A DNA stretch of 64,000 bases from a virus (lineage: Duplodnaviria; Heunggongvirae; Uroviricota; Caudoviricetes). The translations under genes were made by a program, and so were the position numbers. Under the pieces are notes generated by a model that saw nothing but the letters and a program-made list of their open reading frames with translations, did not search any database and had not been told where the DNA came from. The stretch spans positions 76,837 to 140,836 of the IMG/VR virus record IMGVR_UViG_3300037424_001372. One strand, given 5' to 3'. This document shows positions 774-38,909 of the stretch, piece after piece. Within the stretch, counting starts at the first letter, position 1, and the number at the start of each line of letters is the position of its first letter.

Positions 774-812
774 AAATTCGAGATGATTAAATTATAATAT
801 CATCTCGAATTT
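774..812. terminator. Bidirectional hairpin between convergent genes
   Basis: Perfect 14-bp inverted repeat AAATTCGAGATGAT (774-787) / ATCATCTCGAATTT (799-812). One arm is the last codons of the 792-2462 gene. Confidence 0.6.
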
Positions 813-2462
813 CATATTCCCACAATCATATACACAATGATAACCCCTTTCCATCATAATTTGATGTTCTGTTTTATTTTTATCAAATCCTTGCTCAACC
901 AAAACATTCTTTCTAAATTTAAATCTATGATAACGAATCAACGTATTTTTTATAAAATACCAATAATTGATATCTGAATTACCAATGAACTTAAATCCTA
1001 ATTTTAAATATAAACCACCATTACTGTAACGTCTATCTGCATATGTTAAAATAGATTTGGGTTGGTATGTTTTAACGAAATAACTAAGTAATTTACTTGC
1101 ACCGCCTATTACTGTTGTGTTAAGTTTATTACAAAACCTCAGCATTTCATATTCACCATCAATACTTATTTTATTGCCCATTGCTAATCTTTTTTTACCA
1201 AATGTCATGATTGATACTAATTCATCATCATAATATAAACCTAATTTAATTTTACCTCCTATAAATCCTTGTATATGATTATTATTTAAAAAATTACGAA
1301 TTGAATTATTATTGTTAATTTCTTTAATTTCACATTTTCTAGCAAATATTTTATTTTCAATAATTCCTAGTTTGGATTTTATTATTGATTTAACAATATC
1401 TCTTTTATTTGCCCATTCATCTTCAAAAATATGTAGCAATTGAATACCTCGTTTTTTGCATAAATTAGTTTTATTTAAATGAAAATCTATATTTTTAAAT
1501 TTTGTTGAATGATAATAAATTCCATTAAATTCAATACCTATTTTATGCTCAGGTAAATAAATATCTATTTCACATTTATCAATTTTTATTTTTGATGCGT
1601 TAAGGTTTAATTCATTTATTATAAAATCAAGCACCTCAAGTTCATTTATTGATGATTGTTGTGATATTGGATAACATTCCGTACATAAATTAGTATTACT
1701 TCTTAATCTCGAAAAATAATTATTTTTTATTATTGTAAATGTTTTATGATATTTACAATAATTGCTTATTATCAATTCATTATCATGAATATTAACATCA
1801 CAGTTATTTAAGTTTAAAGTATTTGAAACATTTTCAATCATTTTAATTTTAGCATTTAATTTTATTTTATTCTTAATTGAATTAATATGATTTTTATCAT
1901 ATGATAAATGTTCAACACCATATTTTATTACATTAGTTTTCTTTATTTTCTCTTTAATGACTTCAGATTTAAATACATTATCAACACCATATTTATTGAA
2001 TGTCGTTTTTTTTTGCTTATCTCTAATTTTCTGTACCTTCATTGGGTTATCAACACCATAATTATTCCTACACGTTATTTCTATTTTTCTTCTAATGTCT
2101 TTTTTTTTCGATATGTGTTCATCTGAATAATATGTGATTTTTTTCTTATTTAACGTTGATTCAGATTTATTACTACATGTAGATGAACAAAATGTCGAAA
2201 ACCCCCTATTAACACTACCCAAAAATGTACAATTTTTACCACAAATAGGACATTTAGGTATTTCGTTTATATTATTAAGATATAGAAGAATTTTCTCTTT
2301 GAATAAACAACTATTTGCAGAATTATTTATTATTTTCTCATATAGTTTCGGAAGATGTTTACTCAACCATTTCTCTGTTGACTTATATCCAGACACGTTA
2401 TCTGTGGTAAACCATATCTTTAATTCTTCCTCAGTGTAATTATTAACATCATTCTCAATCAT
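792..2462 (-). CDS. Free-standing endonuclease, paralog A: Zn finger, 3 x 23-aa repeats, Vsr-like PD-(D/E)xK nuclease, Mom-like GNAT domain
   Basis: CPIC...FCSSTC; YGVDNP repeats; EIDIYLPEHKIGIEFNGIYYHS...HLNKT...QLLHIFEDEW; C-terminal KIFARKC...NHIQG...LVSIMTFG...YEMLRFC...GGASKLL...TYADRRYSNG.LY..LGF. Confidence 0.75.
   Translation of the reverse strand: MIENDVNNYTEEELKIWFTTDNVSGYKSTEKWLSKHLPKLYEKIINNSANSCLFKEKILLYLNNINEIPKCPICGKNCTFLGSVNRGFSTFCSSTCSNKSESTLNKKKITYYSDEHISKKKDIRRKIEITCRNNYGVDNPMKVQKIRDKQKKTTFNKYGVDNVFKSEVIKEKIKKTNVIKYGVEHLSYDKNHINSIKNKIKLNAKIKMIENVSNTLNLNNCDVNIHDNELIISNYCKYHKTFTIIKNNYFSRLRSNTNLCTECYPISQQSSINELEVLDFIINELNLNASKIKIDKCEIDIYLPEHKIGIEFNGIYYHSTKFKNIDFHLNKTNLCKKRGIQLLHIFEDEWANKRDIVKSIIKSKLGIIENKIFARKCEIKEINNNNSIRNFLNNNHIQGFIGGKIKLGLYYDDELVSIMTFGKKRLAMGNKISIDGEYEMLRFCNKLNTTVIGGASKLLSYFVKTYQPKSILTYADRRYSNGGLYLKLGFKFIGNSDINYWYFIKNTLIRYHRFKFRKNVLVEQGFDKNKTEHQIMMERGYHCVYDCGNMKFEMIL
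1866..2072 (-). repeat. Three 69-bp (23-aa) coding tandem repeats
   Basis: CRNNYGVDNPMKVQKIRDKQKKT / TFNKYGVDNVFKSEVIKEKIKKT / NVIKYGVEHLSYDKNHINSIKNK. Confidence 0.85.
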
Positions 2463-2607
2463 TTTTCATATCATTTTCTAACAACACTCTTATTTTTTCA
2501 GATAATGAATACCTCTTATCTTTACAATATTTTTGATATTGATTCTTTAACTCTGGACTTATTCTAATTTTAAGTTCAGTTGTTTTATCTTTTAAATATT
2601 TTTCCAT
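2455..2607 (-). CDS. Small ribbon-helix-helix-like DNA-binding protein (50 aa, not in the ORF track)
   Basis: Hand translation: MEKYLKDKTTELKIRISPELKNQYQKYCKDKRYSLSEKIRVLLENDMKND*. RHH pattern of strand (LKIRIS), helix, then S-L-S-E-x-I-R helix. Overlaps the start of the endonuclease by 8 bp. Confidence 0.7.
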   Translation of the reverse strand: MEKYLKDKTTELKIRISPELKNQYQKYCKDKRYSLSEKIRVLLENDMKND

Positions 2608-2629
2608 TTTAATTTTGAATTAGTTCCCA

Positions 2630-2660
2630 CAAATATAAATACTATAAACTTATAAAACAA
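2630..2660 (-). promoter_or_regulatory. Nested host-type (TTG-N20-TATATTTG) and phage late-type (GTATTTAT) promoter
   Basis: Minus strand: TTG 2660-2658, GTATTTAT 2642-2635, TATATTTG 2637-2630. Confidence 0.65.
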
Positions 2661-2662
2661 CA

Positions 2663-2670
2663 GTATTTAT
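2663..2670 (+). promoter_or_regulatory. Putative late promoter GTATTTAT
   Basis: Recurring motif, 39 nt upstream of the ATG at 2710. Confidence 0.65.
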
Positions 2671-2709
2671 ATTAAATATATTTTATGTGTAATATTTAAT
2701 TGAACTTAA

Positions 2710-3270
2710 ATGAAAAAAAATAAACAAATAATTGATTTAGAAACAAATCGAATGGGTATGTTTATGACAAACAATTCATTTAATTTGGATATAATGTATG
2801 GCAGAAATTTTCTTCAAACAGATAATGCTCAAACAGTAAAAATACATAAAATAAATATTATTGAAACTAAATCACATTCATTATATGGTCAAACAAAATC
2901 TAAAGATAAAAAATTCTTACCTCCTGTTGAATTAAGTGTTATGGTTAATATTGCTGGAGGTAAACAAGAATATTATGGAAGTAATCAAGGTGGCATCGCT
3001 CGTGATGATAGTGGTAATATTAGTTTTGGTGTTTATTTAAAGGAATTAGAAGAAAAACAAATTGAAATTGATAGGGGTGATATTATTGAATATAATATGA
3101 GTGGTGAAAAAAATCGTTATTATGAAGTTGAAAATGCTAATAATGTTACTGATGAAACAAGTAAAACTATTGGGGGATTCAAAAATTACTGGAAAAAGAT
3201 AACTGGTGTCCCCGTAAAATCTGACGTATTTAATTTTAATGATGGTGAAAAGGGCGATTTTTTAGTTTAA
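2710..3270 (+). CDS. Head completion/neck protein (T4 gp14-like)
   Basis: 'LYGQTK...FLPPVEL...GNISFGVYLKELEEKQIEIDRGDII...YYEV' pattern; follows the neck gene; late motif upstream. Confidence 0.55.
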   Translation: MKKNKQIIDLETNRMGMFMTNNSFNLDIMYGRNFLQTDNAQTVKIHKINIIETKSHSLYGQTKSKDKKFLPPVELSVMVNIAGGKQEYYGSNQGGIARDDSGNISFGVYLKELEEKQIEIDRGDIIEYNMSGEKNRYYEVENANNVTDETSKTIGGFKNYWKKITGVPVKSDVFNFNDGEKGDFLV

Positions 3271-3289
3271 ATATTTATAATTTTTAAAT

Positions 3290-3532
3290 TTATTCATCTT
3301 TCAAATATTTTGTTTTTATTTTATTTAATTCTTCTACAATCTTTTTATGTTGTTCTTTCGATTGTATTCCTAAATCATCGGCATATTCAATATAGATATC
3401 AATAACAAAGTTTAAAAACTCTTTCTCTTTATCTCTTAAATATACCGATGATTTAATGATCTTAAACAATGTCAGTGCTAATAGCAGTATAATTACCACC
3501 AATAATAATATTATAATATATAACACTAACAT
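3290..3532 (-). CDS. Small membrane protein (single N-terminal TM helix)
   Basis: Hydrophobic N-terminus of about 25 aa followed by a charged tail. Confidence 0.55.
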   Translation of the reverse strand: MLVLYIIILLLVVIILLLALTLFKIIKSSVYLRDKEKEFLNFVIDIYIEYADDLGIQSKEQHKKIVEELNKIKTKYLKDE

Positions 3533-3549
3533 TCAATATTTATTTTTAA

Positions 3550-4380
3550 TTAGATTGCAATTTCCAATGTTTTGCTTAATTTTTGAATACCTTCAATATT
3601 TTTTATTTCAAAATCATCAATAGTATATTCATAAAAGTTTTTCATTTCTTTTAAAACTAATATTGGTTGTTCTTCTAATGGTTCACGTTTTAATAATTCA
3701 TCGACAGAATCAAAATGTTTATCATATATATGTAAGTTTTGTGTCAAATGACAAAATTTACCAATATTATATCCTAAATGACCAGCAATCATCATTTGCA
3801 ATGCAACATATTGAATTTTATTAATGTAACCAGCCATAATATAATCATTACTTCTCTGTATAAGTGTTAAATCTAAATAAAAAATATTATTAACTTTTCT
3901 AACTGACCAAATAGTTTCATAAGCACATGGGTCTAAACCAATTGTAGAATTAATATCTTCATATTGATACATGTTTATAATGTGTCTACGCGCAAATGGA
4001 TTATATTCTAAAGAATATAAAAGTTTATTAATTAAATCATGTTTCTTAACTGTTGCACCATATCTTTGTCCAATAGTCCCATCACCAACATTCCATTCAT
4101 CCCACCAATTAATACCTAATTTGTGTGCATCTGATAAAATATTAGATTGTTTCTGATAAATCCAAAACATTTCTTTAATTCCAGTTTTTATTGCAGTATT
4201 TCTTAAAGTAGTTATTGGAAATTCCCCTTTAGATAAATCATATTCTTCAAATATTTGAGTAATAAATTTACTATGTGCTGGTTGACCATCTTTCCATTTT
4301 GGTCTTGGGTTTTCATCCCACTGTCCATCATTTAAAATTTTATTTAAATTTTGAATGTAATAATTATCTGCTTTTATCAT
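3550..4380 (-). CDS. thyA: Thymidylate synthase
   Basis: WWDEW, RRHIINMY, LDPCAY (catalytic Cys), QRSND and NLHIYD motifs. Confidence 0.95.
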   Translation of the reverse strand: MIKADNYYIQNLNKILNDGQWDENPRPKWKDGQPAHSKFITQIFEEYDLSKGEFPITTLRNTAIKTGIKEMFWIYQKQSNILSDAHKLGINWWDEWNVGDGTIGQRYGATVKKHDLINKLLYSLEYNPFARRHIINMYQYEDINSTIGLDPCAYETIWSVRKVNNIFYLDLTLIQRSNDYIMAGYINKIQYVALQMMIAGHLGYNIGKFCHLTQNLHIYDKHFDSVDELLKREPLEEQPILVLKEMKNFYEYTIDDFEIKNIEGIQKLSKTLEIAI

Positions 4381-5359
4381 AATAAAATTGATTAAATTTT
4401 TTTATATTATTAGTTAAATCTTCAATTAATATAGATGAATGTCTTGATTTTCTTATATTATCACTCCATAATATTAATTCTAAATTAGATGGATGTGAAA
4501 TTATATCAACCTCAATATTATTAATAAATCCTTCAAACACACTGAATTTATGGTCAAGTTGATATCCATCATTACCATTTGTAACTCTTTTTAAATTTTC
4601 TGGATTAATAAATTCATTATATTTAAGATAGTTTTTTCTGGTTAAATTTCTCACACTCTTACTATATTTTTTAAAATCACTTAAAAATTCATCTGGAATA
4701 ATCAATCCTCTTAAAATTTTAGTATTCCTTTGTTTTTTCACATTTTCTTCATTATTAATTAAAAAGGAATTGGTTACACCATATTTTGTTTCAATAATGG
4801 TTTTTATTTTATGAATTATTTCGGAAGATTTAAATGGATTATCAACGCCATAATTAATTAGCCAAGTTTTCTTTGCTTTATTTTTTATTTCTTCAGAATG
4901 AAATGAATGAAATACACCAAAATTTTGAAACATTTTTTCCTTAACCTTATCATTAAGTGATTTTACTTGAAATGTATATCCCCCGTATTTAATATTAAAT
5001 GTTTCGGTTCTTTTTTTAATTCTAATTTTCTTTTCATCATCACTTAAATTCAAATAACATTCTCTAAATTTATTTTTAGTTTCGTCCGAATTGTTATTAC
5101 ATTTATGGGAACAATATTTATTTTGAATATTTAACATATTTTTACCACATTGTGCACATTTATTAATACTATATTTATTATATAGTATATAATTTATTCT
5201 TACACTCAACGAAGGATTCATTTCATTTAAAAATGATGTTTCTTTTTGAATTTCAAAAATAAAATTCTCGTTCAAATGTGACATTTTTTTTGATGAAATA
5301 AGTGGTTTACTATTTCGTATAAAACAAACTTCATTAATTATTTTTTCTTTTATATTCAT
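4364..5359 (-). CDS. Free-standing HNH-type endonuclease with Zn finger and 4 copies of the 23-aa repeat
   Basis: CAQC...YCSHKC; (Y/F)G(V/G) repeats; C-terminal YQLDHKFSV...ISHPSNLELILWSDNIRKS (HNH-like). Overlaps the thyA start by 17 bp. Confidence 0.75.
   Translation of the reverse strand: MNIKEKIINEVCFIRNSKPLISSKKMSHLNENFIFEIQKETSFLNEMNPSLSVRINYILYNKYSINKCAQCGKNMLNIQNKYCSHKCNNNSDETKNKFRECYLNLSDDEKKIRIKKRTETFNIKYGGYTFQVKSLNDKVKEKMFQNFGVFHSFHSEEIKNKAKKTWLINYGVDNPFKSSEIIHKIKTIIETKYGVTNSFLINNEENVKKQRNTKILRGLIIPDEFLSDFKKYSKSVRNLTRKNYLKYNEFINPENLKRVTNGNDGYQLDHKFSVFEGFINNIEVDIISHPSNLELILWSDNIRKSRHSSILIEDLTNNIKKFNQFYYDKSR
4721..4999 (-). repeat. Four coding tandem repeats of about 23 aa
   Basis: FNIKYGGYTFQ.. 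/ MFQNFGVFHSFHSEEIKNKAKKT / WLINYGVDNPFKSSEIIHKIKTI / IETKYGVTNSF.. Confidence 0.75.
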
Positions 5360-5376
5360 GTTTGATTGCTTTTCTC

Positions 5377-5384
5377 ATAAATAC
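5377..5384 (-). promoter_or_regulatory. Putative late promoter GTATTTAT
   Basis: ATAAATAC on the + strand, 17 nt upstream of the 5359 start. Confidence 0.6.
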
Positions 5385-5470
5385 TAAGAAACCATAAAAA
5401 ATCATAATTTATTTTGAAATATGTTTACTTTCTTTTTCAACACCATTATTTATGATGTTTTGTAATAAGT

Positions 5471-5818
5471 CTAAAGATTGTTTACGTGTTTATTAATTAA
5501 TGTTTCAAATTTTTCATTAATTTCTTTTGTTTTTTCAGATGACAATGGGAATATTGCTGGTTTTATTATTTCAATAATTTTATTTATTTCTTTATTTTTA
5601 TAAGCATTTTCAGTTATAAATATATCTCTAACTGTTATTCCACATAAATGCATTGCTTTTGAAATACAATGATATGTAAATTTATCAGTATTAATAAACT
5701 TCCCATATCTTGATGTTTTTATATTAAAATTATCACCTACTAATGAATCAACATAATTTTGAAAATCTTCAGTTGTTTCAGCGATAACTCCAATAGTTAT
5801 TTTTTCTTTTATATTCAT
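5471..5818 (-). CDS. Hypothetical protein
   Basis: 115-aa ORF with an ATG start, co-oriented with its neighbours. Confidence 0.6.
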   Translation of the reverse strand: MNIKEKITIGVIAETTEDFQNYVDSLVGDNFNIKTSRYGKFINTDKFTYHCISKAMHLCGITVRDIFITENAYKNKEINKIIEIIKPAIFPLSSEKTKEINEKFETLINKHVNNL

Positions 5819-5829
5819 ATTTAATTAGT

Positions 5830-13539: not shown

Positions 13540-15534
13540 TTAATATAGTTTTAATGAAAATTTTATCGTTCCACAGTTATAGATTTTATAAATATTATGT
13601 TCGATTAATATTTCGTCAATAGTTTTATTATCATCATACCAACCCAATTCAATAATTCTTTTTTTTCTAAAATTAAATCTATGATATCTCTGTTTTTGAT
13701 TGTTAGCAATATAATAATATGATGGTTTGTTAACATGAACTTCGTTAAAACCAATTTGTTTGTATAAATTACCTTGACTAAATCTTAAATCTGCATATGT
13801 TATAATTTCATGTGGGTTGTATGTTTTAATAAAATATTTTAATAATTTACTCGCACCACCAATAACATGTGTATTAATTTTATTACAAAATCTTGATAAA
13901 TTAAAAAATTTATCAGAATTTTTAGCATTACCCAATCCTTTTCTTGCCGTATCAAAACACATAATTGAAACTAAATCATTATTATAATATAAACCAATTG
14001 AAATTTCAGAAGGAACTGCTCCTTGGACATGATTTAACATTAAGAAATCACTTGTAGTCGATTTATCAATTTCTTTTATGACTGTGTTTCTACCATAAAT
14101 ATTATTTTCAATAATATTTAGTTTTGACTTAATTATTGACTTTATTATTTCTTTTTTATAAATCCATTCATCTTCATAAACATGTAATAATTGAATACCT
14201 TTATTATTACATAAATTTGTTTTATTCAGATGATAATTTTTATCTTTAAATAATTCAGAATGCCAATAAAGACCATTAAATTCAATAGCTAATTTATATT
14301 CTGGAAGATAAAAATCTAATTCTTGTTTGTTATCTAAAATAGATTTATCATTATTAACCAATTTAATATTTAATGACATTAAAAATGATTTTAATTCTAA
14401 TTCAATTATTGATTTATTTTCAGAAACGGGATTACATTTAGTACAAATATTTTCATGTTTATTCCAAATTAATCTACTATATAACAATGATTTGGAAATA
14501 TTAAAATTATCATGTTTTTTACAATAATTATTAATAGTTACATAATCCCCAATAATATCAATATCATTTTGATTTACATTTAATAAATTAGAATATTTTT
14601 TTATAAAATTTAAAATATTGGTTTTTTTAATTTTTAATATTATTTCAGGTGATTTTGAAATATTATCGACACCATATTTTTTTATTGTTGTTTCTTTTGA
14701 TTTTATTCTATTATTAAAATTTTCATCACCATATTTTTCTAATTTTATTTTTTTTACACTTTCTTTAATAACATCGCTCTTCATTGGGTTGTCGACACCA
14801 TATTCTTTTATTAATGTTCTATTTTTTTTTAAACTAAATTCATTAGAATTAAAATAATGTTCAACATCATACTTTTCTTTAACAGTCTTTCTGATTTTGT
14901 TTTTAATCTCATCAGATTTATTAGGATTGTCGACGCCATATTTTTTTAAATTAGTATTTTTGACTATTTCTTTAATAACTTCACTCTTCATTGGATTGTC
15001 GACACCATATTTTTTTAAAAGAGTTTCTTTTTTTTTGTTTTTAACTTCATCTAATTGATTATGACTTTCAACATTGTATTTCAATAAATTAGTTTGTCTT
15101 GTTTTTTCTTTAATAGTTGTAAGTTTTTGAGGGTGCTCAATACCATATCGTCTAATATTGGTTAATTTAATTTTTTCTTTTATTTCATTAGATTGTAAAG
15201 CATATTTTACCCCATTTTTTATTATTGAAGTTTGTTCTCTTTTTCCTTGAACAGTTTTATCTAAACCAAGACATTTCATTGAACAATATGACGAATAACC
15301 TTCACTAAATTTTTTAAATCGAACATCATTTTCACAAATAATACATTTGGGTGGATTAATCATGTCATGAGTAATTAAATATAACATTTCTGAAAATGAA
15401 ATGTTGTTATCTAAAAACGTTTTAATTATCTCGTTATATAAATTAGTATAATATTTTTGAAAATATTCTTTTGTCATTCTTTTTCTATTGATTTTACCTT
15501 CAACAAAAATAATACTATAAATCTTTTCTTTCAT
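13540..15534 (-). CDS. Free-standing endonuclease, paralog B: Zn finger, 9 repeats, Vsr-like nuclease, Mom-like GNAT domain
   Basis: Same architecture as 792-2462 (ELDFYLPEYKLAIEFNGLYWHS; GGASKLL; TYADLRFSQG.LY..IGF). Start set at ATG 15534, downstream of the promoter. Confidence 0.75.
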   Translation of the reverse strand: MKEKIYSIIFVEGKINRKRMTKEYFQKYYTNLYNEIIKTFLDNNISFSEMLYLITHDMINPPKCIICENDVRFKKFSEGYSSYCSMKCLGLDKTVQGKREQTSIIKNGVKYALQSNEIKEKIKLTNIRRYGIEHPQKLTTIKEKTRQTNLLKYNVESHNQLDEVKNKKKETLLKKYGVDNPMKSEVIKEIVKNTNLKKYGVDNPNKSDEIKNKIRKTVKEKYDVEHYFNSNEFSLKKNRTLIKEYGVDNPMKSDVIKESVKKIKLEKYGDENFNNRIKSKETTIKKYGVDNISKSPEIILKIKKTNILNFIKKYSNLLNVNQNDIDIIGDYVTINNYCKKHDNFNISKSLLYSRLIWNKHENICTKCNPVSENKSIIELELKSFLMSLNIKLVNNDKSILDNKQELDFYLPEYKLAIEFNGLYWHSELFKDKNYHLNKTNLCNNKGIQLLHVYEDEWIYKKEIIKSIIKSKLNIIENNIYGRNTVIKEIDKSTTSDFLMLNHVQGAVPSEISIGLYYNNDLVSIMCFDTARKGLGNAKNSDKFFNLSRFCNKINTHVIGGASKLLKYFIKTYNPHEIITYADLRFSQGNLYKQIGFNEVHVNKPSYYYIANNQKQRYHRFNFRKKRIIELGWYDDNKTIDEILIEHNIYKIYNCGTIKFSLKLY
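14620..15228 (-). repeat. Nine coding tandem repeats (8 x 23 aa plus 1 x 19 aa)
   Basis: GTCGAC recurs at 14791, 14929 and 14998 (multiples of 69 bp). Example units: LLKKYGVDNPMKSEVIKEIVKNT, NLKKYGVDNPNKSDEIKNKIRKT. Confidence 0.9.
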
Positions 15535-15553
15535 AATACAATTAATTAGGTTA

Positions 15554-15585
15554 CAAAGATAAATACTTAATCTTTTAATTTCAAA
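15554..15585 (-). promoter_or_regulatory. Nested host-type (TTTG-N20-TATCTTTG) and late-type (GTATTTAT) promoter
   Basis: Minus strand reads GTATTTATCTTTG (15566-15554), with TTTG at 15585-15582. Confidence 0.65.
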
Positions 15586-15717
15586 TAATTTTTTAATTAA
15601 ATTAGAATAATAATTTGAAATTCGATTAAAAATGAAATAAAAAAATATAAAAATTGGATGATTATTGTGGCGGAATCTGAATTGTATCAAATAATTAGTC
15701 TTTTGAATATTTTTCTA

Positions 15718-15725
15718 GTATTTAT
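15718..15725 (+). promoter_or_regulatory. Putative late promoter GTATTTAT
   Basis: Upstream of the tail sheath gene. Confidence 0.65.
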
Positions 15726-15782
15726 TTGAAATAGAAATGAATTTTTCAATAAAAAATAAATATATTAAATAAAAAAAATAAG

Positions 15783-18548
15783 ATGGCAGATTTCGTATTT
15801 ACATCTCCGGGTGTTAAATTTAAAGAAAGAGATATTACTTTTGTAACACGTAATGTTGGTATCACGACATTAGGATTAGCTGGTGAAACATTAAAAGGAC
15901 CTGCTTTTGAACCGGTTTATATTCAAGACCAAACCCAATTTTTAAATAGATTTGGTGGACAAAGTATAAAAAGGTTTCAAAACGGTGAAAAAACATTACA
16001 ATATCAATTACCTTATGTTGCAAATGCTTTTTTGGAAGAAGCTCAACAACTTTGGGTAACTAGAGTACTTGGACTTAGTGGATATAAGGCAGGTAAATCA
16101 TGGAATATTTTATTAGATGCAGGTGTTGATTTATCTACATCAGGTGTTACAGGTTCTCCGGTAACAACAACAGATATTCCATTTACCGGAGCAGCTTATT
16201 TAGGCGTTTCACTTAATGGTATTGGGGTTACTGGTTCAACCGCCACAGGATACACAAAAAATAATAGTATTTTCTATCAAACAGTTCATGAATTCACTGC
16301 TACGACATATACTTCAGGTACTGGTACTGTTACTGATATAACAACAACATATTCAGCAAATTCATTAACAGAATATGAAAATATGGTATTGGCCGTTATT
16401 AGAAGTAGGGCGGTTTCAAATATTCCGATAGATTCAATTGCAGTAACAACACCCATTACAACTGATGTTGAAATTACTCAAAATGATACTTTAATTGATG
16501 CAGGTGATTTATTTGCGACAATTAAATTAGATGTTAATAATACTGATAATAGTTCGATATATTTTGGTACTAATGCAACATATTATGTATCATTAAATCC
16601 AAACGATTCCAACTATTTACCAAATGTTATAGGTCGTGAACCTAAAGATAAGAATACCATGATTTGGGTTCAAGCAATCTATCCAGATTTAATTAGAAAA
16701 CTTGATGCCGATAGCATTGCATATGGTATTAAATCAGAAATGATTGAAACTGATGAAAATAATACATATTTTGCGGATTATGAAGTTGGTTATCAAACAC
16801 CTGAAACTCCTTGGGTAGTATCTCAATTAAAAGGTAATAGTGTTGATAAATTATTTAAATTTATAAGTATTTCGGATGGAGATTCTGCTAATCAAGAAAT
16901 CAAAATTAGTATTGCAAATATTGACCCATATTCATTAGAATTTGATGTGGTTATTCGTGATTTTTATGATACCGATGCAAATGTTTCTGTTTTAGAAACC
17001 TATACAAGATGTAATTTAACCAAAGGTAGTTCAAATTATATTGGTCAACGTATTGGTACTAGTGATGGCGAATATAGTTTAATTAGTAAGTATATAATGG
17101 TAGAAGTTTCCGAAGAATTGGCTAATGATGTATACCCTGCCGGATTTGAGGGTTATTTGTTTAACAATTATTCGACTGAAGTGACCGGTAGTGCTACTGA
17201 AGGTATTTGTCCCGAAATATTTTATAAAACTTCTTATGCCGATACTGATAAGTTAGTGAAAACATATTTAGGTATTTCTGAATTAGCATATACTGGTAAT
17301 GGTATTAATCAAAATTTTTTTAATTTTAATAACTATTATAATGGTCAAACCGCTAGTGGATTTACTAAAACAAAAGGTTTTCACTTAGATTCTGGAGTAA
17401 CTATTATTACTGGAAATACCGAATTTGTTGGTGGTGCAGCAGCATTTAATACTACTGTTGATAGTAATACCACTGGTCCATATTATAACATTAAATCAAG
17501 AAAATTTACATTAGTTCCAGCAGGTGGTTTCGATGGTTGGGATGTAAATAGAACTGAACGTTCTTATGGAGATGATTATGTTCAAGGTGGAAGGAGAAGT
17601 GGACACCCCGGTGAACCATTAGTTGTTCCGACAAATGATTTTCAGGCATGGGAAACAGCTATAGATACTTTTGCTAATCCAGAGGATATTACTATTAACC
17701 TTTTCGCAACCCCCGGAATTGAGTGGGCTAATCAAACAACTTTAGTTCAAAATACTATTGATATGATTGAACAACAAAGAACAGATACTCTATATGTTAT
17801 TGATGCGCCTCAATTAAGCGAAGATTTTCTTTCAACAGTTGGTGATAGTGGTAAGGCAGATGTTTTAGCTGCCACAGAAATTGCCAATTTATTAGAAGAT
17901 ACATCGATAGATAGTAGTTATGCATGTACATACTATCCTTGGATTCAAATGCGCGATACTCAAAACAATGTTAATGTTTATATTCCACCAACTGGTGAAG
18001 TGGTTAAAGCAATGGCATATACTGATAACGTATCATTCCCTTGGTTTGCAGTAGCTGGTCTTAATCGTGGTGTTACTAACGCAAGAAAATCACAATTTAA
18101 ACTTTCTTTGGATGCTCGTGATATTCTTTATGCCGGTCGTGTAAATCCTATGGCAGATTTTGCAAATACTGGAACTGCTATTTTTGGCCAGAAAACACTT
18201 CAAGTTAAAGAAACTGCACTTGATAGGATCAATGTTCGTAGATTATTATTGCAAATCAAAGTGTTGATTTCAAATATTGCAGTTAGATTGTTATTCGAAC
18301 AAAATGACCAAGCGACTATCGACCAATTCTTAAATAAAGCAAATCCTATTCTTGATAGTATTAAACGTGAGAGAGGTTTAACTGATTTTAGAATAAAAAT
18401 GGATAGTAGTAATAACACCCCTGAAACTCGCGATAGAAACGAATTGTATGGTGAAATCTTCTTAAAACCAACTCGTTCGGTAGAATTTATTGGAATTACA
18501 TTCACGATAACGCCATCAGGAGCAAATTTTGCTGATGCAGGTGCTTAA
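15783..18548 (+). CDS. Tail sheath protein (T4 gp18-like)
   Basis: N-terminal SPGVKFKERD; C-terminal YYPWIQ..., PWFAVAGLNRG, VNP, FGQKTL, RINVRRLL, LFEQND, KPTRSVEFIGITF. Confidence 0.95.
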   Translation: MADFVFTSPGVKFKERDITFVTRNVGITTLGLAGETLKGPAFEPVYIQDQTQFLNRFGGQSIKRFQNGEKTLQYQLPYVANAFLEEAQQLWVTRVLGLSGYKAGKSWNILLDAGVDLSTSGVTGSPVTTTDIPFTGAAYLGVSLNGIGVTGSTATGYTKNNSIFYQTVHEFTATTYTSGTGTVTDITTTYSANSLTEYENMVLAVIRSRAVSNIPIDSIAVTTPITTDVEITQNDTLIDAGDLFATIKLDVNNTDNSSIYFGTNATYYVSLNPNDSNYLPNVIGREPKDKNTMIWVQAIYPDLIRKLDADSIAYGIKSEMIETDENNTYFADYEVGYQTPETPWVVSQLKGNSVDKLFKFISISDGDSANQEIKISIANIDPYSLEFDVVIRDFYDTDANVSVLETYTRCNLTKGSSNYIGQRIGTSDGEYSLISKYIMVEVSEELANDVYPAGFEGYLFNNYSTEVTGSATEGICPEIFYKTSYADTDKLVKTYLGISELAYTGNGINQNFFNFNNYYNGQTASGFTKTKGFHLDSGVTIITGNTEFVGGAAAFNTTVDSNTTGPYYNIKSRKFTLVPAGGFDGWDVNRTERSYGDDYVQGGRRSGHPGEPLVVPTNDFQAWETAIDTFANPEDITINLFATPGIEWANQTTLVQNTIDMIEQQRTDTLYVIDAPQLSEDFLSTVGDSGKADVLAATEIANLLEDTSIDSSYACTYYPWIQMRDTQNNVNVYIPPTGEVVKAMAYTDNVSFPWFAVAGLNRGVTNARKSQFKLSLDARDILYAGRVNPMADFANTGTAIFGQKTLQVKETALDRINVRRLLLQIKVLISNIAVRLLFEQNDQATIDQFLNKANPILDSIKRERGLTDFRIKMDSSNNTPETRDRNELYGEIFLKPTRSVEFIGITFTITPSGANFADAGA

Positions 18549-18556
18549 CATAAAAC

Positions 18557-18593
18557 AAAAAAAATGCGATATATTTAATATCGCATTTTTTTT
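18557..18593. terminator. Bidirectional rho-independent terminator
   Basis: A8-TGCGATAT-ATTTA-ATATCGCA-T8. Confidence 0.85.
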
Positions 18594-18595
18594 AT

Positions 18596-20137
18596 CTATA
18601 ATATTAATTCATATTTAAAATTACCACAATCATAAATTCTAGGTATTTTTCTATCTAACATTATTTCATGTTCGGATTTATTTAAATCAAAGCCCTCTTG
18701 AATTAAGTTACTTTTTCTAAAATTAAATCGATGTTTACGTTGTTTATTTATTACATAAAAATAATTTGGTGGTGTAATCTTTGTTTGTTTAAAATTTAAT
18801 TTTTCATATAAATTACCGTTTGAATATCTTCTATTCGCATATGTAATAATTTTATTTGGTTTATTTTTTTTTATAAAAAAATCTAATAATTTAGATGCTC
18901 CTCCAATAACAGAAGTATTTAACTTATTACAAAATCTCAATAATTCATAATCATTTAAATTTGATTTTGAGCCTAAAATATTTCTTAAATTACCGAAAGT
19001 CATTATCGAAACTAATTCATTATTATATAATAATCCAATATTATATTTACCATTAACATTTCCTTGAATATGATTTTTTTCTAAAAAATCTTTGGTAGTA
19101 ATATTATCGATATAAGTGATTTCACATTTTCGGGCAAATATTTTAATTTTTGTTAAATTTAATTTATTTAATATTATGGATTCAACAATATTAAATTTTT
19201 CAATAATTTCGTCTTCAAAAAATTGTAATAAATCATAATTAATGTCATTACATTTATTTAGTTTATTTATATGATAATGTTTATCAACATAATATTCTGA
19301 ATGCCAATGTAATCCATTAATTTCAATTCCAATATTTTTTTCAGGAATTAAAATATCGATTTCAAGATTTTTTAACAGTTTTCTATCATTAGCAATATAA
19401 TTCACATTATTAATATTAAGAAAATTACCTATTTTTAATTCTAATGTTGATTTGGGTGCAGAAACCGGTAATAATATTGTCGATAATTCAACATTATGAT
19501 TTAAACGATTAACTAATAACTTTCTATGATTTTCAAAAATATGTCCATCTGGATGTTGAATTTTAATATTATCATTATTAAAGTCAATTATTTTATAATT
19601 GATTTCTGCAAACCTTTGTATTAGATTTAAATTTCTTTTATTAATTATTGTTGCACGTGCTTTTTTTATTGAATCATGATTATTGTGTTTTATTTTATTT
19701 TGAATCGATTTTAATTTAAACAATGAATCAACACCATATTTTAACATCAAAGATTCTTTGCTTTTTTGTATTCTATTATTTTTATTTTCAATATTATTAT
19801 TCCAAATATTCCTACATAAAATTGAACAAAATTTTTTATCGTATTTTATCCTTTCTTTAAATTCATTTCCACATATTAAACAAATTCTATTCTCAGTACT
19901 ATTAACATGTTTAGCCTCTCCAGAACATTTATATGAACAATATTTTTTATTTTCTTTTATTTTAGATTTAAACAATTTACTACAATTTTGACATTCTTTC
20001 ATTTCAAAGAAAATTTCGTCTTTTTTTAATCTAAATTGTTTTTTACATTCATTAGAACAAGTTTTTTTTTCTTTTCCTTTTCTAACTTCAAAAGATTTGC
20101 CACAATTTTCACATATCATATTTACAATAACTGCCAT
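18596..20137 (-). CDS. Free-standing endonuclease, paralog C: 3 CxxC...CSxxC Zn fingers, 1 repeat, Vsr-like nuclease, Mom-like GNAT domain
   Basis: CENC..TCSNEC, CQNC..YCSYKC, CLIC..FCSILC; KYGVDSLFK; EIDILIPEKNIGIEINGLHWHS; GNAT motifs as in the other paralogs. Confidence 0.75.
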   Translation of the reverse strand: MAVIVNMICENCGKSFEVRKGKEKKTCSNECKKQFRLKKDEIFFEMKECQNCSKLFKSKIKENKKYCSYKCSGEAKHVNSTENRICLICGNEFKERIKYDKKFCSILCRNIWNNNIENKNNRIQKSKESLMLKYGVDSLFKLKSIQNKIKHNNHDSIKKARATIINKRNLNLIQRFAEINYKIIDFNNDNIKIQHPDGHIFENHRKLLVNRLNHNVELSTILLPVSAPKSTLELKIGNFLNINNVNYIANDRKLLKNLEIDILIPEKNIGIEINGLHWHSEYYVDKHYHINKLNKCNDINYDLLQFFEDEIIEKFNIVESIILNKLNLTKIKIFARKCEITYIDNITTKDFLEKNHIQGNVNGKYNIGLLYNNELVSIMTFGNLRNILGSKSNLNDYELLRFCNKLNTSVIGGASKLLDFFIKKNKPNKIITYANRRYSNGNLYEKLNFKQTKITPPNYFYVINKQRKHRFNFRKSNLIQEGFDLNKSEHEIMLDRKIPRIYDCGNFKYELIL

Positions 20138-33338: not shown

Positions 33339-36300
33339 ATGGCTGAAGTACCTTCAAGATTATCAGATGGAAATATAATATATTATGGTGATAATATACC
33401 TATCCAAGAGTATCGTGAAAAGATATATGCACGTAGTTTATATAGTTTAGATAATGAATATGGTAATACCAATAAATTTTCTTTAAGAAATAAAGGTAAT
33501 GTCGCTAGTGGAATTCAAAGTGTTTTAAATGTAGTACCTCAATATAATCGCATACAAACAAGCACTAATTTATTAGGAAATGTTTATGATGCATTTCGAG
33601 ATGAAGGTTCCCCATTATCAAAGATTGGTTTAATAATGTTAGGTAAACAATTAGCATATAATTCTGCTGCTAATTTAGCTACTAAATATTTACCAACAAT
33701 CGATTTAAGTCAGGTATTAAAAGGCAATCCTACTGATATTTTTAAAAAAAATATTGATAATACTATTACAATTAAAGATAGTTCAACTTCAACCTTTTTA
33801 GATAAGGTAGGTAAGACTGCTAGTAATATTTTTGGTTTTGATACATACAATGTTTTTGGAAATGCAAATCCATTTACTAAAAATCCTACCAATGTTGATT
33901 ACATTAAAAATACTGGTAATGCTCAATTAACTCGATTCTTTAAGTCAATTAACTTAAATCCATATAAATCAATTAATACTTCAGATAATTCTGATTATAC
34001 CACAGTATTACGTGAATATAGTAATAATGTGGGCGTTAATTTATTAGATGGTTCTGATATCATTAATAATAAAAAGTTTTTTATTTTTGACAATAAGAAA
34101 CAAAAACCTTATTTTAGTAGAAGTTTAACTATCAATCCTATTGAGTCTAATGCTATTGCAAATTCAAATATGGTTTCATCATATTTTAATTCTGGTTTAG
34201 GTGAAATTCAGGAATATGGTCCTAGTTACCAATTCGTTATTGAAAATTTTGGCGAAATTAAAAAATATCAAGGGAAAACTAATATTTTAAATTATGTTAG
34301 TGATGAACCAAATTTATCTTATGATGATAAAAATGATAAATTAGTATGGGGTCGTGATGGTGTTGGAGTACAAGCCGAAACATATATTAAAGATTTACGT
34401 GGTGATTACGATAGTATTGATCTTAATCAAGATAATGGTATATTAGATAGTGGCAATAATGGTGCTAAAACAGGTTTACTTAATTACACCAAAAACTTAT
34501 TAAATGCTAGTGAAGGTAATTTTGTTGATATAACTCGTAAAGCATTTAAGGAAGGTACAAATTATATTGGATTTAATGGTTCTCCATTGTGGAAATCCAA
34601 TAATAGTAAATATGCTCTTGAGACTGGTTATAATGTTGATGAAGTTGGTATTAGACAACATACAGTACTAGACCCATATAATAATTTTATTAAAACAATT
34701 AGATTTAAAGGTAATTATGTTTATGACGGCAGTGAAAATTCTGTGATAAATAAAACTATTTTACCTAAAATCCATCCAATTAGAACCGATGATGGTAAAA
34801 TCGATAATAGAAATTTAATATTTAGTCTTGAAAATCTTGCTGTCGATACAATTAAAAAAGATACTTATGCAATATTGGCCGATGAATATGGTACAGCGAT
34901 TCCATTAAGCGAAGCAGGTCCTTTTGGAGGTAGATTAATGTGGTTTCCTCCATATAACATTACTTTAAATGAAACTGCTTCTGCAAAATATGATTCCACT
35001 GTTATGATTGGTCGTAGTGAACCAATGTATAATTATATGAATTCTGAAAGAACTGCCACACTAACATTTTCATTATTAGTTGATTATCCCGAACAATTAA
35101 GAAATTTAAAATATCAAGGCAATAATAAAAATAAAATAATTGCAGATTTTTTTGCTTACGGTGGTGATAATATCCCAATCGAATCAAAAATAGATGATAT
35201 TGAATTACGAATAACCAATCTGAAAGCTCAAATTGATAATTATGGTACCCCTGTCATTCAAACAGAACCACCGGCACAAATACTTCCAGATGTGACAATA
35301 TTTTACCCTAATGATGAACCACATGATTATAATGTTGATTCTATTATAGATAAAATGTATAATGATTATCATTATGAAATTATTGATGGCTTAAATTCCG
35401 GTGTTAATGGTGGTGATGGTAATGGTTTTGGATTAAATAATAGTATGTATTTTGTTTCAGGACTAACAGGGACTATTGTTGAAGGTAAACAAGTTTGGAC
35501 TTTAGTCGATAATAGTGTTTCACAATATAACAGTATTGATACTTATGGTCAAGATGATAATTTTTGTAAATTAAATGAAAATTTAAAGAATCTTTTTAGT
35601 GACGAAAATACTAGAAAATATTATTCAATATACATAAGGTCAACGTCATCTAAATTATATTTAGGTGATAATGAAGATAAATATAATAAAGAGTTAGGTA
35701 ATAGACGAAATTTAGCTGCAAAAAATCTTATTGTTAATAAATTAGTTAAGATGTTTGGTATGTCAGTGGCTAATGAATTGGAATTAAATAATATTGTGTT
35801 ATATAATAGTATTGGTAGTGTCGATAGTGGTACTGTTGGTGCTAAATCTGAAAATATGCATTTAAGAGAAGTTAAAGAAGAAAGGAAAACTGTTATAAGT
35901 TTTGGTCGAAATAAAGTTCCAATTGATAAGAAAGAAAATAATTTAACTACTAAGGAAAAACAAGAAATTGCTTTAATTAATGCTGATATCGATAAATTAA
36001 CCATCCAGTTAAATAAATTAAAAAAGAATTTAACTGAATTTGTGTTTAATGAAAGAGATAATTATAAAGGTAGTTTAAGTGGATTTGAATCTATTAGCAA
36101 TAATCAATATAGACCTGTTTTTCATAGTCAAACTCCTGAAGATTTTCATAGAAGATTAACATTTTTACATCAATGTACCAGACAAGGACCTGCTAAAAGA
36201 TATAATATTGTTGATACTAATGGTCAATTAAGAGCAAGAAATAGTGTTTTTGGCAAACAACCAATATGTATTTTAAGAGTTGGCGATTTTTGGCACACTA

Positions 36301-36659
36301 AAGTAATTATTGAAAACGTAACATTTGATTATAATGAAACAACGTGGGATTTAAACCCCGAAGGTCATGGATTACAACCAATGTTAGTTAATATAACCTT
36401 ACAAATGAAAATAATTGGTGGTCAATCATTGAAAGGTCCTATCGATGCACTTCAAAATGCTGCAACATTTAATTATTATGCCAATTCGACATTTAATTCT
36501 AAAGAAGATATTTATAAAAGAGCTACTGATGTAGAATCAAAACAAAATAGTTATTATTTTGGTATTGATACTAAATATGATGAAAATGGTAATGTAACAA
36601 CTGGAATAATGGGTGAAAGAAACAAATCATTAATAAAATCAATAGGAGGGACCGAATAA
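33339..36659 (+). CDS. Baseplate/tail-tube initiator protein with an inserted OmpA-like domain
   Basis: Split tube-like fold (WFPPY...IGRSEPMYNYMNSERTATLTFSLLVD ... PICILRVGDFWHTKVIIENVTFDY..TWD...PM..NITL) flanking 'YNKELGNRRNLAAKNLI'. Confidence 0.6.
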   Translation: MAEVPSRLSDGNIIYYGDNIPIQEYREKIYARSLYSLDNEYGNTNKFSLRNKGNVASGIQSVLNVVPQYNRIQTSTNLLGNVYDAFRDEGSPLSKIGLIMLGKQLAYNSAANLATKYLPTIDLSQVLKGNPTDIFKKNIDNTITIKDSSTSTFLDKVGKTASNIFGFDTYNVFGNANPFTKNPTNVDYIKNTGNAQLTRFFKSINLNPYKSINTSDNSDYTTVLREYSNNVGVNLLDGSDIINNKKFFIFDNKKQKPYFSRSLTINPIESNAIANSNMVSSYFNSGLGEIQEYGPSYQFVIENFGEIKKYQGKTNILNYVSDEPNLSYDDKNDKLVWGRDGVGVQAETYIKDLRGDYDSIDLNQDNGILDSGNNGAKTGLLNYTKNLLNASEGNFVDITRKAFKEGTNYIGFNGSPLWKSNNSKYALETGYNVDEVGIRQHTVLDPYNNFIKTIRFKGNYVYDGSENSVINKTILPKIHPIRTDDGKIDNRNLIFSLENLAVDTIKKDTYAILADEYGTAIPLSEAGPFGGRLMWFPPYNITLNETASAKYDSTVMIGRSEPMYNYMNSERTATLTFSLLVDYPEQLRNLKYQGNNKNKIIADFFAYGGDNIPIESKIDDIELRITNLKAQIDNYGTPVIQTEPPAQILPDVTIFYPNDEPHDYNVDSIIDKMYNDYHYEIIDGLNSGVNGGDGNGFGLNNSMYFVSGLTGTIVEGKQVWTLVDNSVSQYNSIDTYGQDDNFCKLNENLKNLFSDENTRKYYSIYIRSTSSKLYLGDNEDKYNKELGNRRNLAAKNLIVNKLVKMFGMSVANELELNNIVLYNSIGSVDSGTVGAKSENMHLREVKEERKTVISFGRNKVPIDKKENNLTTKEKQEIALINADIDKLTIQLNKLKKNLTEFVFNERDNYKGSLSGFESISNNQYRPVFHSQTPEDFHRRLTFLHQCTRQGPAKRYNIVDTNGQLRARNSVFGKQPICILRVGDFWHTKVIIENVTFDYNETTWDLNPEGHGLQPMLVNITLQMKIIGGQSLKGPIDALQNAATFNYYANSTFNSKEDIYKRATDVESKQNSYYFGIDTKYDENGNVTTGIMGERNKSLIKSIGGTE

Positions 36660-36970
36660 TGCCTTATCAAGATTATAATAGATACGAATTATTAAAAAAT
36701 TCAAACGGTACTACTGATGCAATGCCGTTTGTAAAATTACCTGAAAATCCTAGTGATAAATTTGAATATTGGAATACTAATTTTAGTAGATTGGATATTT
36801 TATCTCAAAAATATTATGGTAATCCTTTTTACGATTTTTTAATTCTTTATGGAAATAATGTTTATTTAAGTGAATTTGATATACCTGATGGTACATTGAT
36901 AAAAATACCATTTCCACTTTCTAAAGCAAAGGCAGATTATGAGCAGATTTTAATGTCATTTAAAACTTAA
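36659..36970 (+). CDS. LysM-like baseplate wedge protein (gp53/tail X-like)
   Basis: RLDILSQKYYGNP....IL..N......IPDGTLIKIP. Confidence 0.75.
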   Translation: MPYQDYNRYELLKNSNGTTDAMPFVKLPENPSDKFEYWNTNFSRLDILSQKYYGNPFYDFLILYGNNVYLSEFDIPDGTLIKIPFPLSKAKADYEQILMSFKT

Positions 36971-36976
36971 TAAAAA

Positions 36977-37008
36977 TTTGATTTTTTCATTTTTAATGTA
37001 TTTATTTG
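36977..37008 (+). promoter_or_regulatory. Late motif GTATTTAT overlapping a near-consensus host promoter
   Basis: TTTG 36977-36980, GTATTTAT 36998-37005, TTTATTTG 37001-37008 (one mismatch to TAnnTTTG). Confidence 0.5.
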
Positions 37009-37025
37009 TAGCAAATATTTTATAG

Positions 37026-38909
37026 ATGAAAAAAGAATGTATTGAAATTTTAGAAAAAAAAATATATTTTGAAAAATATATAAAAAAAACTTATCCATTA
37101 TTATATGATGAAATAATAAAATTTAATTCTAAATTAGATATTTCATGGTTAAATAAATTATATAATTACATATTTAATATTAAAATTCATCCTAAATGTG
37201 AATATTGTAATACACAATTAAATTTTAGAAATAAAATTAGTATTGGATATGGTCAATATTGCTCAAAAAAATGTACTTCTTTAGCTACAAGAGATAAGGT
37301 AATAAATACTAATTTAGAAAAATATGGTGTTGAATATCCTTTACAAAATAAGGAAATTTATCAAAAATTAATTAATACTAATTTAGAAAAATATGGTGTT
37401 ATTTCAACACTATTAGATGAAAAGGTTCAAGAAAAAATTAAACAAACTAATTTAGTTAGACATGGCGTTGAAAATCCGTCTCAATCAGATTTAATAAAAT
37501 ATAAACGCAAACAAACTAATTTAAAAAAATATGGTGTTGAGAATGTTTTTTGTGTAAATATTATAAAAAATAAAATTAAAGAATGTAATGAAAATAAATC
37601 CCATTTTGAAAAAGAGTTTATTAAAGAAAAAACTAAAAAAACTAATTTAAAAAAATATGGGGTGTCAACAGTTCTTATTTTAGAAGAAAATAGAAAAAAA
37701 ATGATTAATTATAATATTAATCATTTAGGTGTTAAATATCCTTTACAAAATGAAGAAATTAGAAATAAATCAAAAAAAACTATTTTGAATAAATATGGCA
37801 CCATTAGTATTAGTAGTTCCAATTATTATAAGGAATGTATTAATACTAATTTAATTAAAAAATATTCATTATTACTTAATTTAAATAATAATAATATTAA
37901 ATATAATAATAATATTTTTATTATTAAAAATTATTGTGAATTACATAAAAAATTTCATATAAAATATGATGATTTATATAATAGAATATTTCTTGGTTGT
38001 AATAACATTTGTACCAAATGCAACCCAATATCTAAACAATCTAAAATAAAGGAAAACGAAATCAATGATTATATCAAATCATTGAATGTTAAATACATAA
38101 GAAACGATAGGAAAATTCTATCCCGTAAAGAGCTAGATTTTTATCTCCCAGATAATAAATTGGCAATTGAATTCAACGGTTTATATTGGCATTCGAATAA
38201 ATATAATTCAAATAATTATCATTTGGATAAAACCAATTCTTGTGAAGAGCAAAACATACAATTATTACATGTGTTTGAGGATGAGTGGGTTTATAAAAAA
38301 GAAATTGTTAAAAGCATTATTAAATCTAAGTTGGGAATAATTGAAAATAAAATATTTGCAAGAAAAACAGAAATAAAAGAAATAACTGATAATAATTTAA
38401 CTAAAGAATTTCTTGAAAATAACCACTTACAAGGTTCTATCAATTCTTCAATTAAGTTAGGATTATTCCATAATAATCAATTAGTTAGTCTTATGACTTT
38501 TGGAAAAAAACGGGTTGCTTTAGGCAATAAAACACAAAATATTGGTGAATATGAGATGTTAAGGTTCTGCAATAAACTTAATACTCAGGTAGTTGGAGGT
38601 GCTAGTAAATTATTAAAATATTTCACAAACAATTACCGACCCAAAGAAATATTAACTTTTGCAGATAGGAGATATAGTAATGGTAATCTATATAAAGAAC
38701 TAGGATTTAATTACTTAGGAAATACCAAACCTAATTATTGGTATTTTAAAAAGAACGAATTGGTAAGATATCATAGATTTAATTTCAGAAAAGATATTTT
38801 GGTTAAAGAAGGTTTTGATTCAAATAAAACCGAACATCAAATAATGGAAGAAAAGGGATATTTGAGAATATACGATTCGGGGAATATGAAATTTAAAATA
38901 AAATGTTGA
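37026..38909 (+). CDS. Free-standing endonuclease, paralog D: Zn finger, about 8 repeats, Vsr-like nuclease, Mom-like GNAT domain
   Basis: CEYC..YCSKKC; NLEKYGV repeats; ELDFYLPDNKLAIEFNGLYWHS; GGASKLL, TFADRRYSNGNLYKELGF. Confidence 0.75.
   Translation: MKKECIEILEKKIYFEKYIKKTYPLLYDEIIKFNSKLDISWLNKLYNYIFNIKIHPKCEYCNTQLNFRNKISIGYGQYCSKKCTSLATRDKVINTNLEKYGVEYPLQNKEIYQKLINTNLEKYGVISTLLDEKVQEKIKQTNLVRHGVENPSQSDLIKYKRKQTNLKKYGVENVFCVNIIKNKIKECNENKSHFEKEFIKEKTKKTNLKKYGVSTVLILEENRKKMINYNINHLGVKYPLQNEEIRNKSKKTILNKYGTISISSSNYYKECINTNLIKKYSLLLNLNNNNIKYNNNIFIIKNYCELHKKFHIKYDDLYNRIFLGCNNICTKCNPISKQSKIKENEINDYIKSLNVKYIRNDRKILSRKELDFYLPDNKLAIEFNGLYWHSNKYNSNNYHLDKTNSCEEQNIQLLHVFEDEWVYKKEIVKSIIKSKLGIIENKIFARKTEIKEITDNNLTKEFLENNHLQGSINSSIKLGLFHNNQLVSLMTFGKKRVALGNKTQNIGEYEMLRFCNKLNTQVVGGASKLLKYFTNNYRPKEILTFADRRYSNGNLYKELGFNYLGNTKPNYWYFKKNELVRYHRFNFRKDILVKEGFDSNKTEHQIMEEKGYLRIYDSGNMKFKIKC
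37311..37847 (+). repeat. Seven repeats of about 23 aa plus one degenerate 19-aa unit
   Basis: Identical 27-mer AATACTAATTTAGAAAAATATGGTGTT at 37305 and 37374 (69-bp period). Confidence 0.85.

Follow-up and report, generated by a model that had tools for sequence, protein, structure and literature searches.

The 64,000-nucleotide stretch analysed here (hereafter the window; positions 76,837 to 140,836 of the IMG/VR virus record IMGVR_UViG_3300037424_001372) carries five genes, P0001 to P0005, whose products share an array of 23-residue units built around a K-Y-G-V element. As judged from their sequences, these are free-standing homing endonuclease genes of the Hef type, and the reading favoured here, with a probability of about 0.62, is that the enzymes hold DNA with a mosaic, modular arm made of zinc ribbons and of units of the Pfam family DUF7487. 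Direct support exists for the repeat and the family it belongs to, for the secondary structure modelled for it, for its charge and fusion partners, and for the unit-specific conservation of some of its residues. That the array binds DNA is likely, and it may in addition carry some unit-specific contacts; no evidence was seen for a code in which one unit reads one step of DNA. The new point brought by this analysis is that connector residues 10-12 of the unit are specific to each slot of the array and are conserved as such across syntenic orthologues. The five genes are thus ordinary selfish elements of a known family, whose repeat is catalogued but uncharacterised.

The genes and their parts are listed below, with E values from a hidden Markov model (HMM) of the unit built from 24 units (aa, amino acids).

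792-2462, minus strand: P0001, 556 aa; N-terminal helical region, zinc ribbon, three units, Vsr-like nuclease, Mom-like GNAT domain.
1866-2075, minus strand: array of P0001, three units, aa 130-199 (unit HMM E 3e-8, 1e-9 and 2e-5).
792-1352: GNAT domain of P0001.
4364-5359, minus strand: P0002, 331 aa; zinc ribbon, four units, short HNH-like tail (motif only).
4715-5002, minus strand: array of P0002, four units, aa 120-215 (E 0.0016 for a weak first unit, then 6e-8, 4e-10 and 9e-5).
13540-15534, minus strand: P0003 (P0006 when read from the ATG), 664 aa; zinc ribbon, nine units, Vsr-like nuclease, Mom-like GNAT domain.
14611-15231, minus strand: array of P0003, nine units, the eighth being a conserved short unit of 19 residues.
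15271-15345, minus strand: zinc ribbon of P0003, CxxC ... C-x3-C, aa 116-140, read from the sequence.
13549-14103: GNAT domain of P0003.
18596-20137, minus strand: P0004, 513 aa; three tandem zinc knuckles, a single unit, Vsr-like nuclease, GNAT-like C-terminus.
19685-19753, minus strand: single unit of P0004, aa 129-151 (E 1.1e-7).
18596-19150 (approximate): GNAT domain of P0004.
37026-38909, plus strand: P0005, 627 aa; zinc ribbon, seven clear units and one degenerate unit, Vsr-like nuclease, Mom-like GNAT domain.
37308-37847, plus strand: array of P0005, seven to eight units, aa 95-274 (seven units at E 1e-8 to 1e-5).
38330-38909 (approximate): GNAT domain of P0005.

When run on all 915 open frames of at least 60 aa in the 324,744-bp genome from which the window is taken, the unit HMM scored single units at about E 1e-5 to 4e-11 and found no array-bearing frame beyond these five. 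Translation and the HMM together agree, within a few bases, with the first-pass annotation of this DNA, which had counted 3, 4, 9, 1 and about 8 units in the five genes; in P0005, the fifth array slot gave no unit HMM score. A 69-bp period was also detected by Tandem Repeats Finder at 14892-15044, inside the P0003 array. The P0003 frame stays open for 52 codons beyond the ATG at 15534, up to a TTG at 15690 (15535-15690), but this extension is probably not translated, since the database gene call and all orthologues begin at the ATG. The N-terminal zinc finger claimed to precede each array is present as well, in the form of a CxxC...C-x3-C ribbon ahead of all five, with three such elements in P0004. 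In P0003 the ribbon is modelled as short strands, for which Foldseek finds weak similarity to the MYND, YacG and FCS zinc fingers. P0004 has a match to a DUF2116-like treble clef at E 6e-5, under the cut-off.

The first-pass annotation could not tell whether the repeat family already had a name. It does: the repeat is DUF7487 (PF24308), a Pfam family of unknown function, and the annotation of the enzymes is that of Hef-like homing endonucleases. Scores to this family are 47.2, 40.0, 120.4 and 101.9 bits for the arrays of P0001, P0002, P0003 and P0005, respectively, relative to a curated cut-off of 27 bits (E 3e-12 for P0001, 5.5e-10 for P0002 and 6e-29 for P0005), and all close homologues carry it. 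The single unit of P0004 has no Pfam hit and was found by the unit HMM alone, because the Pfam model spans 220 positions, that is, about 9-10 units. The family is large: with clustering at 50% identity, the P0003 array matches 16,842 cluster representatives at E <= 0.001 and still 8,737 when the threshold is lowered to 1e-10, and predicted structures of relatives come from phages, Klosneuvirus, Marseillevirus and an iridovirus. A literature search on DUF7487, on KYGV and on TALE-like repeats in phage endonucleases (TALE, transcription activator-like effector) found no relevant paper.

Assignment to the Hef-type enzymes relies on the whole proteins and on their nuclease domains. The proteins belong to phrog_3339, "homing endonuclease", with E values down to 1e-145 (3e-132 for P0001, 1e-100 for P0004 and 6e-142 for P0005). 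A tblastn search with P0003 matched 425 phage records, including F-LimVIII of Dickeya phage LIMEstone1, RaK2-like Klebsiella jumbo phages and Campylobacter phages, and the matches to annotated homing endonucleases span 84-93% of the protein. F-LimVIII was classed as "Hef-like" by its authors (PMC3296691), and Taylor et al. count Hef-type enzymes among the Vsr-like, "EDxHD" endonucleases, of which I-Bth0305I is the prototype (PMC3239194). In line with this, a profile built from 42 homologues hits the nuclease domain of I-Bth0305I (3r3p) at E 3.1e-5 along 87 residues. The Asp that binds Mg lines up, as do the positions of the Asn, the His and the acidic residue; the Asp of a D-x-Y-L-P stretch pairs with the D196A position of 3r3p. 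P0001, P0003, P0004 and P0005 all contain the stretches E-F-N-G, W-H-S and E-D-E, and E418, H435 and K438 are invariant across the 42 sequences, while the Pfam Vsr match stays under its cut-off (22-24 versus 27 bits). The four Vsr-like nucleases of the first-pass annotation are thus confirmed by homology: the domain is of the EDxHD, I-Bth0305I type, and the catalytic positions are found in all four proteins.

The fifth protein, P0002, has neither the Vsr-like nor the GNAT domain. The HNH nuclease proposed for it is a candidate by motif: a D-H ... N-L ... N-x-x-K pattern can be read by eye in residues 268-314, but the tail has no Pfam HNH match and no PDB sequence match at E <= 10, and a homologue search with it returned one homologue only. 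Feature scores of P0002 to HNH clusters in the ESM Atlas are 0.84-0.86, to be taken as a lead only, and some clusters of relatives join DUF7487 to a bona fide HNH domain.

Family statistics were drawn from 260 retrieved relatives with 2,493 units. Arrays hold 1 to 17 units, 8-10 being the commonest numbers, and, of 2,233 pairs of adjacent units, 89.5% are spaced by exactly 23 residues. Such strict spacing points to a single, fixed packing of neighbours and away from a beads-on-a-string arrangement with flexible links. The units are basic, as had been stated, with a net charge of +1.75 to +4 and with K or R at positions 5, 18, 20 and 22 in 76-90% of 1,228 units, and they share a median pairwise identity of 30%. 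It had also been claimed that only the five residues following Y-G-V vary. This is true of positions 10-12, where entropy is high, but positions 15, 21 and 23 are variable as well, and 85% of units have Q or K at position 13, which is thus fairly conserved. At position 10, N, Y, H and S account for 87%, and positions 10-12 together take 477 distinct triplets in the 2,493 units, the ten commonest covering 28%. Positions 9 and 13 covary strongly, with 1166 E/Q and 323 D/K pairs versus 76 E/K and 108 D/Q (odds ratio about 46), and probably form a side-chain pair bracing the connector turn. The recurrence of cores across the five genes is real (D-N-P-M-K three times, Y-P-L-Q twice). It was considered as a sign of shared specificity and rejected: D-N-P-M-K, present in 33 of the 2,493 units, is among the commonest cores of the family, and its recurrence therefore reflects the consensus.

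Structure prediction gives a consistent picture of the single unit. AlphaFold2 models of full-length P0003 (42 sequences; mean predicted local distance difference test score, pLDDT, 88.9) and of its ribbon plus array (13 orthologues; pLDDT 87.4, predicted template modelling score, pTM, 0.41) both show, per unit, a 15-residue helix (positions 15-23 and 1-6), a four-residue loop G-V-x-x (7-10) and a three-residue turn (11-13), which places the variable residues 10-12 in the connector between helices. A 46-residue super-repeat of two helices had been suggested by the family consensus, which seemed to alternate units with and without proline, and was discarded, as the position-11 proline does not alternate at lags 1-4. 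For the array model, Foldseek returns nothing from the PDB at E <= 0.001; VIA-align, run against 48,161 chains, reaches a Z of 3.7 at best and picks out long coiled coils with a huge root-mean-square deviation (rmsd); a PDB sequence search finds the nuclease and the GNAT domain only and nothing for the array; and in the ESM Atlas, the model resembles other DUF7487 models only. In these comparisons, the modelled array has no clear solved relative, which does not in itself prove a new fold.

The slot-specific residues emerged from eleven orthologues of P0003 (about 55% identity to it). Among them, every array slot has a core that stays characteristic of it: K-Y-T/A-L-Q in slot 1, E-H/Y-P-Q-Q in slot 2, D-N-P-M-K in slot 4, E-N-Y-N-N-R in the short slot 8 and D-N-P-S-K in slot 9. 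The excess of between-unit over within-slot entropy is largest at positions 10-12, with +0.80, +1.05 and +1.36 bits, and a second, independent group of orthologues gives +0.96, +0.97 and +1.34 bits at the same positions. This is the pattern expected of residues making unit-specific contacts with a ligand.

The first-pass annotation had gone further and proposed a TALE-like code, in which the residues that follow Y-G-V let every unit recognise one short, fixed step of DNA and the order of units spells a reprogrammable target. Several features do fit: a copy number of 1 to 17 with a strict period, variable residues lying between helices much like the repeat-variable diresidue loop of TALEs, the small residue set at position 10, and the slot-specific conservation just described. 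However, TALE-type repeats would show a near-identical scaffold, with variation confined to the code position, and a small code alphabet, and neither is seen here: the scaffold is not constant, positions 15, 21 and 23 vary as much as the supposed code, the triplets at positions 10-12 run into the hundreds, and the covariation of positions 9 and 13 suggests that the connector is partly structural. In I-Bth0305I, the only relative characterised biochemically, specificity moreover comes mainly from the nuclease dimer, which reads 14 bp at the cleavage site, whereas the contacts that the N-terminal arm adds, in a footprint of some 60 bp, are mostly non-specific (PMC3239194). No TALE or other repeat protein is among the Foldseek or VIA-align matches listed, although absence from such lists is no exclusion. 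The strong form of the analogy is thus not upheld, and a TALE-like code is improbable. The same low probability is given to the idea that DUF7487 arrays form a new modular class of sequence readers, a one-helix, 23-residue solenoid tracking the DNA groove with residues 10-12 specifying short target steps. Of the claim that the core residues set the target, what stands is that residues 10-12 are unit-specific in two orthologue groups; the small alphabet and the constant scaffold that it would imply are missing.

A role as a DNA-binding arm is the most likely one in view of the basic charge, the strict spacing, the slot-specific residues, the partners of the array, which mostly act on DNA, and the interchange of arm parts. 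In relatives, the array is joined to MTES_1575, DUF559, Vsr, TnsA-like and HNH nucleases and to the Mom family, and, by automatic Atlas cluster labels only, to N6_N4 DNA methylases. Together with the Vsr-like and HNH-like proteins of the window, this bears out the earlier description of the array as a module placed on different catalytic domains and indicates, at the sequence level, that it is a swappable module fused to various DNA-acting domains. Within the arm, P0004 combines three zinc knuckles with one unit, and P0001, P0002, P0003 and P0005 combine one ribbon with several units.

According to the favoured reading, the arm would consist of one to three zinc ribbons followed by one to nine DUF7487 units, each a basic 15-residue helix ending in K-Y-G-V and continued by a seven-residue connector (7-13). 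Fixed packing between neighbours would produce an elongated helical array, which may lie along the DNA beside the cleavage site, with the conserved lysines 5, 18, 20 and 22 on phosphates and the connector residues 10-12 adding unit-specific, sequence-tolerant contacts. The number of units would then set the length of the footprint, while the Vsr-like or HNH-like domain would cut and probably provide much of the specificity, as in I-Bth0305I.

The array could conversely be a spacer or ruler that does not itself bind DNA, namely a stiff helical linker setting the distance between the ribbon, as the real DNA anchor, and the nuclease. The linker of I-TevI is a precedent for such distance setting, and the elongated model with its low pTM, the copy number varying freely among paralogues and the 19-residue unit conserved at a fixed slot all agree with it. 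A mere spacer, however, would need neither four conserved K or R per unit, with a net charge of +2 to +4, nor unit-specific conserved connectors. In addition, some Atlas cluster representatives are only 216-242 aa long, two of these clusters being DUF7487-bearing, and such proteins, if they lack a nuclease, would have nothing to space. This explanation is therefore considered unlikely.

Several observations nonetheless weigh against a DNA-binding arm with unit-specific contacts. Conservation of the slot cores could reflect unit-specific packing instead of DNA contacts, and, as the covariation of positions 9 and 13 shows, the connector does have a structural part. In P0003 (units 4-7 at 14740-15020), unit 7 matches unit 4 at an identity of 83% in DNA and 78% in protein, whereas slot 7 of the orthologues holds a different type, S-Y-S-x-T; by its sequence, unit 7 looks like a recent copy of unit 4 or the product of gene conversion within the array, and slot 7 at least thus tolerates replacement. 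Homologue models superpose at an rmsd of 10-25 Å, which, together with the pTM of 0.41, makes the long-range shape of the array uncertain or flexible. Finally, no DNA-binding or cleavage data were found in the literature for any DUF7487 array.

The surroundings of the genes bear on their role as homing elements. The source record is a virus genome of 324,744 bp, complete according to CheckV, with a G+C content of about 25%. The window encodes a tail sheath (15783-18548) and a thymidylate synthase (3550-4380; match at E 5e-61), and these genes, in a genome of this size, identify the phage, by gene content, as a jumbo myophage. Homing endonuclease genes bracket the tail sheath gene, with P0003 upstream and divergent and P0004 directly downstream (13540-20137). 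In related phages the upstream neighbour is kept, and the two P0003 orthologues whose contigs were examined likewise adjoin the sheath gene. The downstream neighbour, for its part, is a homing endonuclease of another type: a GIY-YIG enzyme with NUMOD3 plus another DUF7487 gene in one relative and a LAGLIDADG enzyme in another. Single genes set between conserved essential genes, with other endonuclease types at matching places, form the pattern of homing elements, and the flanks of the sheath gene thus appear to be a hot spot for them. Thymidylate synthase genes are classic targets of phage homing endonucleases. Of note, the P0002 gene lies upstream of the thymidylate synthase gene, its 3' end overlapping the start of the latter by 17 nucleotides (4364-4380).

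The C-terminal domain of four of the five proteins opens another interpretation of the whole protein. The last 185 residues of the P0003 model form a GNAT fold, whose top match in the PDB, in a Foldseek search with the full model, is the DNA-modifying enzyme Mom of phage Mu (8bv8; E 4e-6, template modelling (TM) score by target 0.56), with numerous GNAT acetyltransferases coming next. The 42-homologue profile also hits the GNAT protein 2bsw at E 0.0067, and homologues carry the Pfam family Mom (PF25680). A 2026 paper reports that Mom uses charged tRNA (PMC13219725). Nuclease-Mom fusions in jumbo phages were described by Iyer et al. (2021), who put forward a restriction and modification role for them (PMC7824862). 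The proteins of the window could accordingly be no homing endonucleases but single-chain weapons joining a nuclease to a Mom-type modification enzyme, with the array as the shared target-recognition part. What speaks against this is the position of the genes, single between conserved essential genes and replaced by GIY-YIG or LAGLIDADG genes at matching sheath-side places in relatives, together with P0002, which has an array and no GNAT domain. Hef of phage U5 is furthermore cited as an endonuclease cleaving nrdB, in a homing context (PMC2988022). A weapon of this kind is thus rather unlikely; it would in any case concern the role of the whole protein and leave the array as a DNA-recognition part.

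DUF7487 is a widespread "known unknown", which marks over 16,000 protein clusters of phages and giant viruses. If it does form a DNA-binding solenoid, this would explain the grip of Hef-type enzymes on long targets and offer protein engineers a compact scaffold of repeats. The slot-specific residues 10-12 provide a concrete site for mutation and keep a weak form of the recognition idea alive, a strong code being unlikely; were the arrays truly a sequence-reading class, they could be deciphered and redesigned in the manner of TALE or PUF repeats.

Among known systems, TALEs share with these arrays tandem helical repeats in variable number, fusion to nucleases, whether natural or designed, and variable residues in the inter-helix connector. 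TALE units have 33-35 residues and two helices, and are near-identical, with a two-residue code drawn from a small alphabet. The units described here have, in contrast, 23 residues, one helix, about 30% identity and hundreds of core variants, and the arrays have no sequence match to TALEs.

NUMOD3 (PF07460) is likewise a short, repeated, basic helical motif in the arm of phage endonucleases of the GIY-YIG and HNH types. By eye, an S/T-x-E-x-K-x-K-I/M stretch is common to it and to the KYGV unit, which is a lead only, and a NUMOD3-bearing cluster is one Atlas structural neighbour of P0002 (TM 0.41/0.54). Outside the window, the same phage encodes a 232-aa protein with NUMOD3 above the Pfam cut-off (C1:35025-35099), whose H-T-D-E-S-K-N-K-M-S resembles, again by eye, the S-x-E-I-K-x-K-I of the unit. 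NUMOD3 differs, however, in having no K-Y-G-V element and no strict 23-residue period, and membership of the arrays in this family was rejected: four of them have no match to its HMM at E <= 10, and the unit HMM misses the NUMOD3 protein of the genome.

I-Bth0305I has a homologous nuclease domain and the same order of parts, an N-terminal DNA-binding arm followed by the nuclease. It differs in being intron-encoded, in lacking a GNAT domain and in its arm, which is made of two NUMOD2-like helix-turn-helix motifs and contains no KYGV units (PMC3239194).

The arrays show no difference from DUF7487 itself. The free-standing Hef and Hef-like enzymes include Hef of phage U5, F-LimIII, F-LimVII, F-LimVIII and F-LimX of LIMEstone1 and members in Campylobacter phage CP220. 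To our knowledge, U5 Hef is the only Hef-type member with published cleavage data. F-LimVIII aligns with 84% of P0003, array included (E 7e-42, about 31% identity), with different numbers of units, and both are encoded by free-standing genes beside tail genes, that of the tail tube in LIMEstone1 and that of the tail sheath here.

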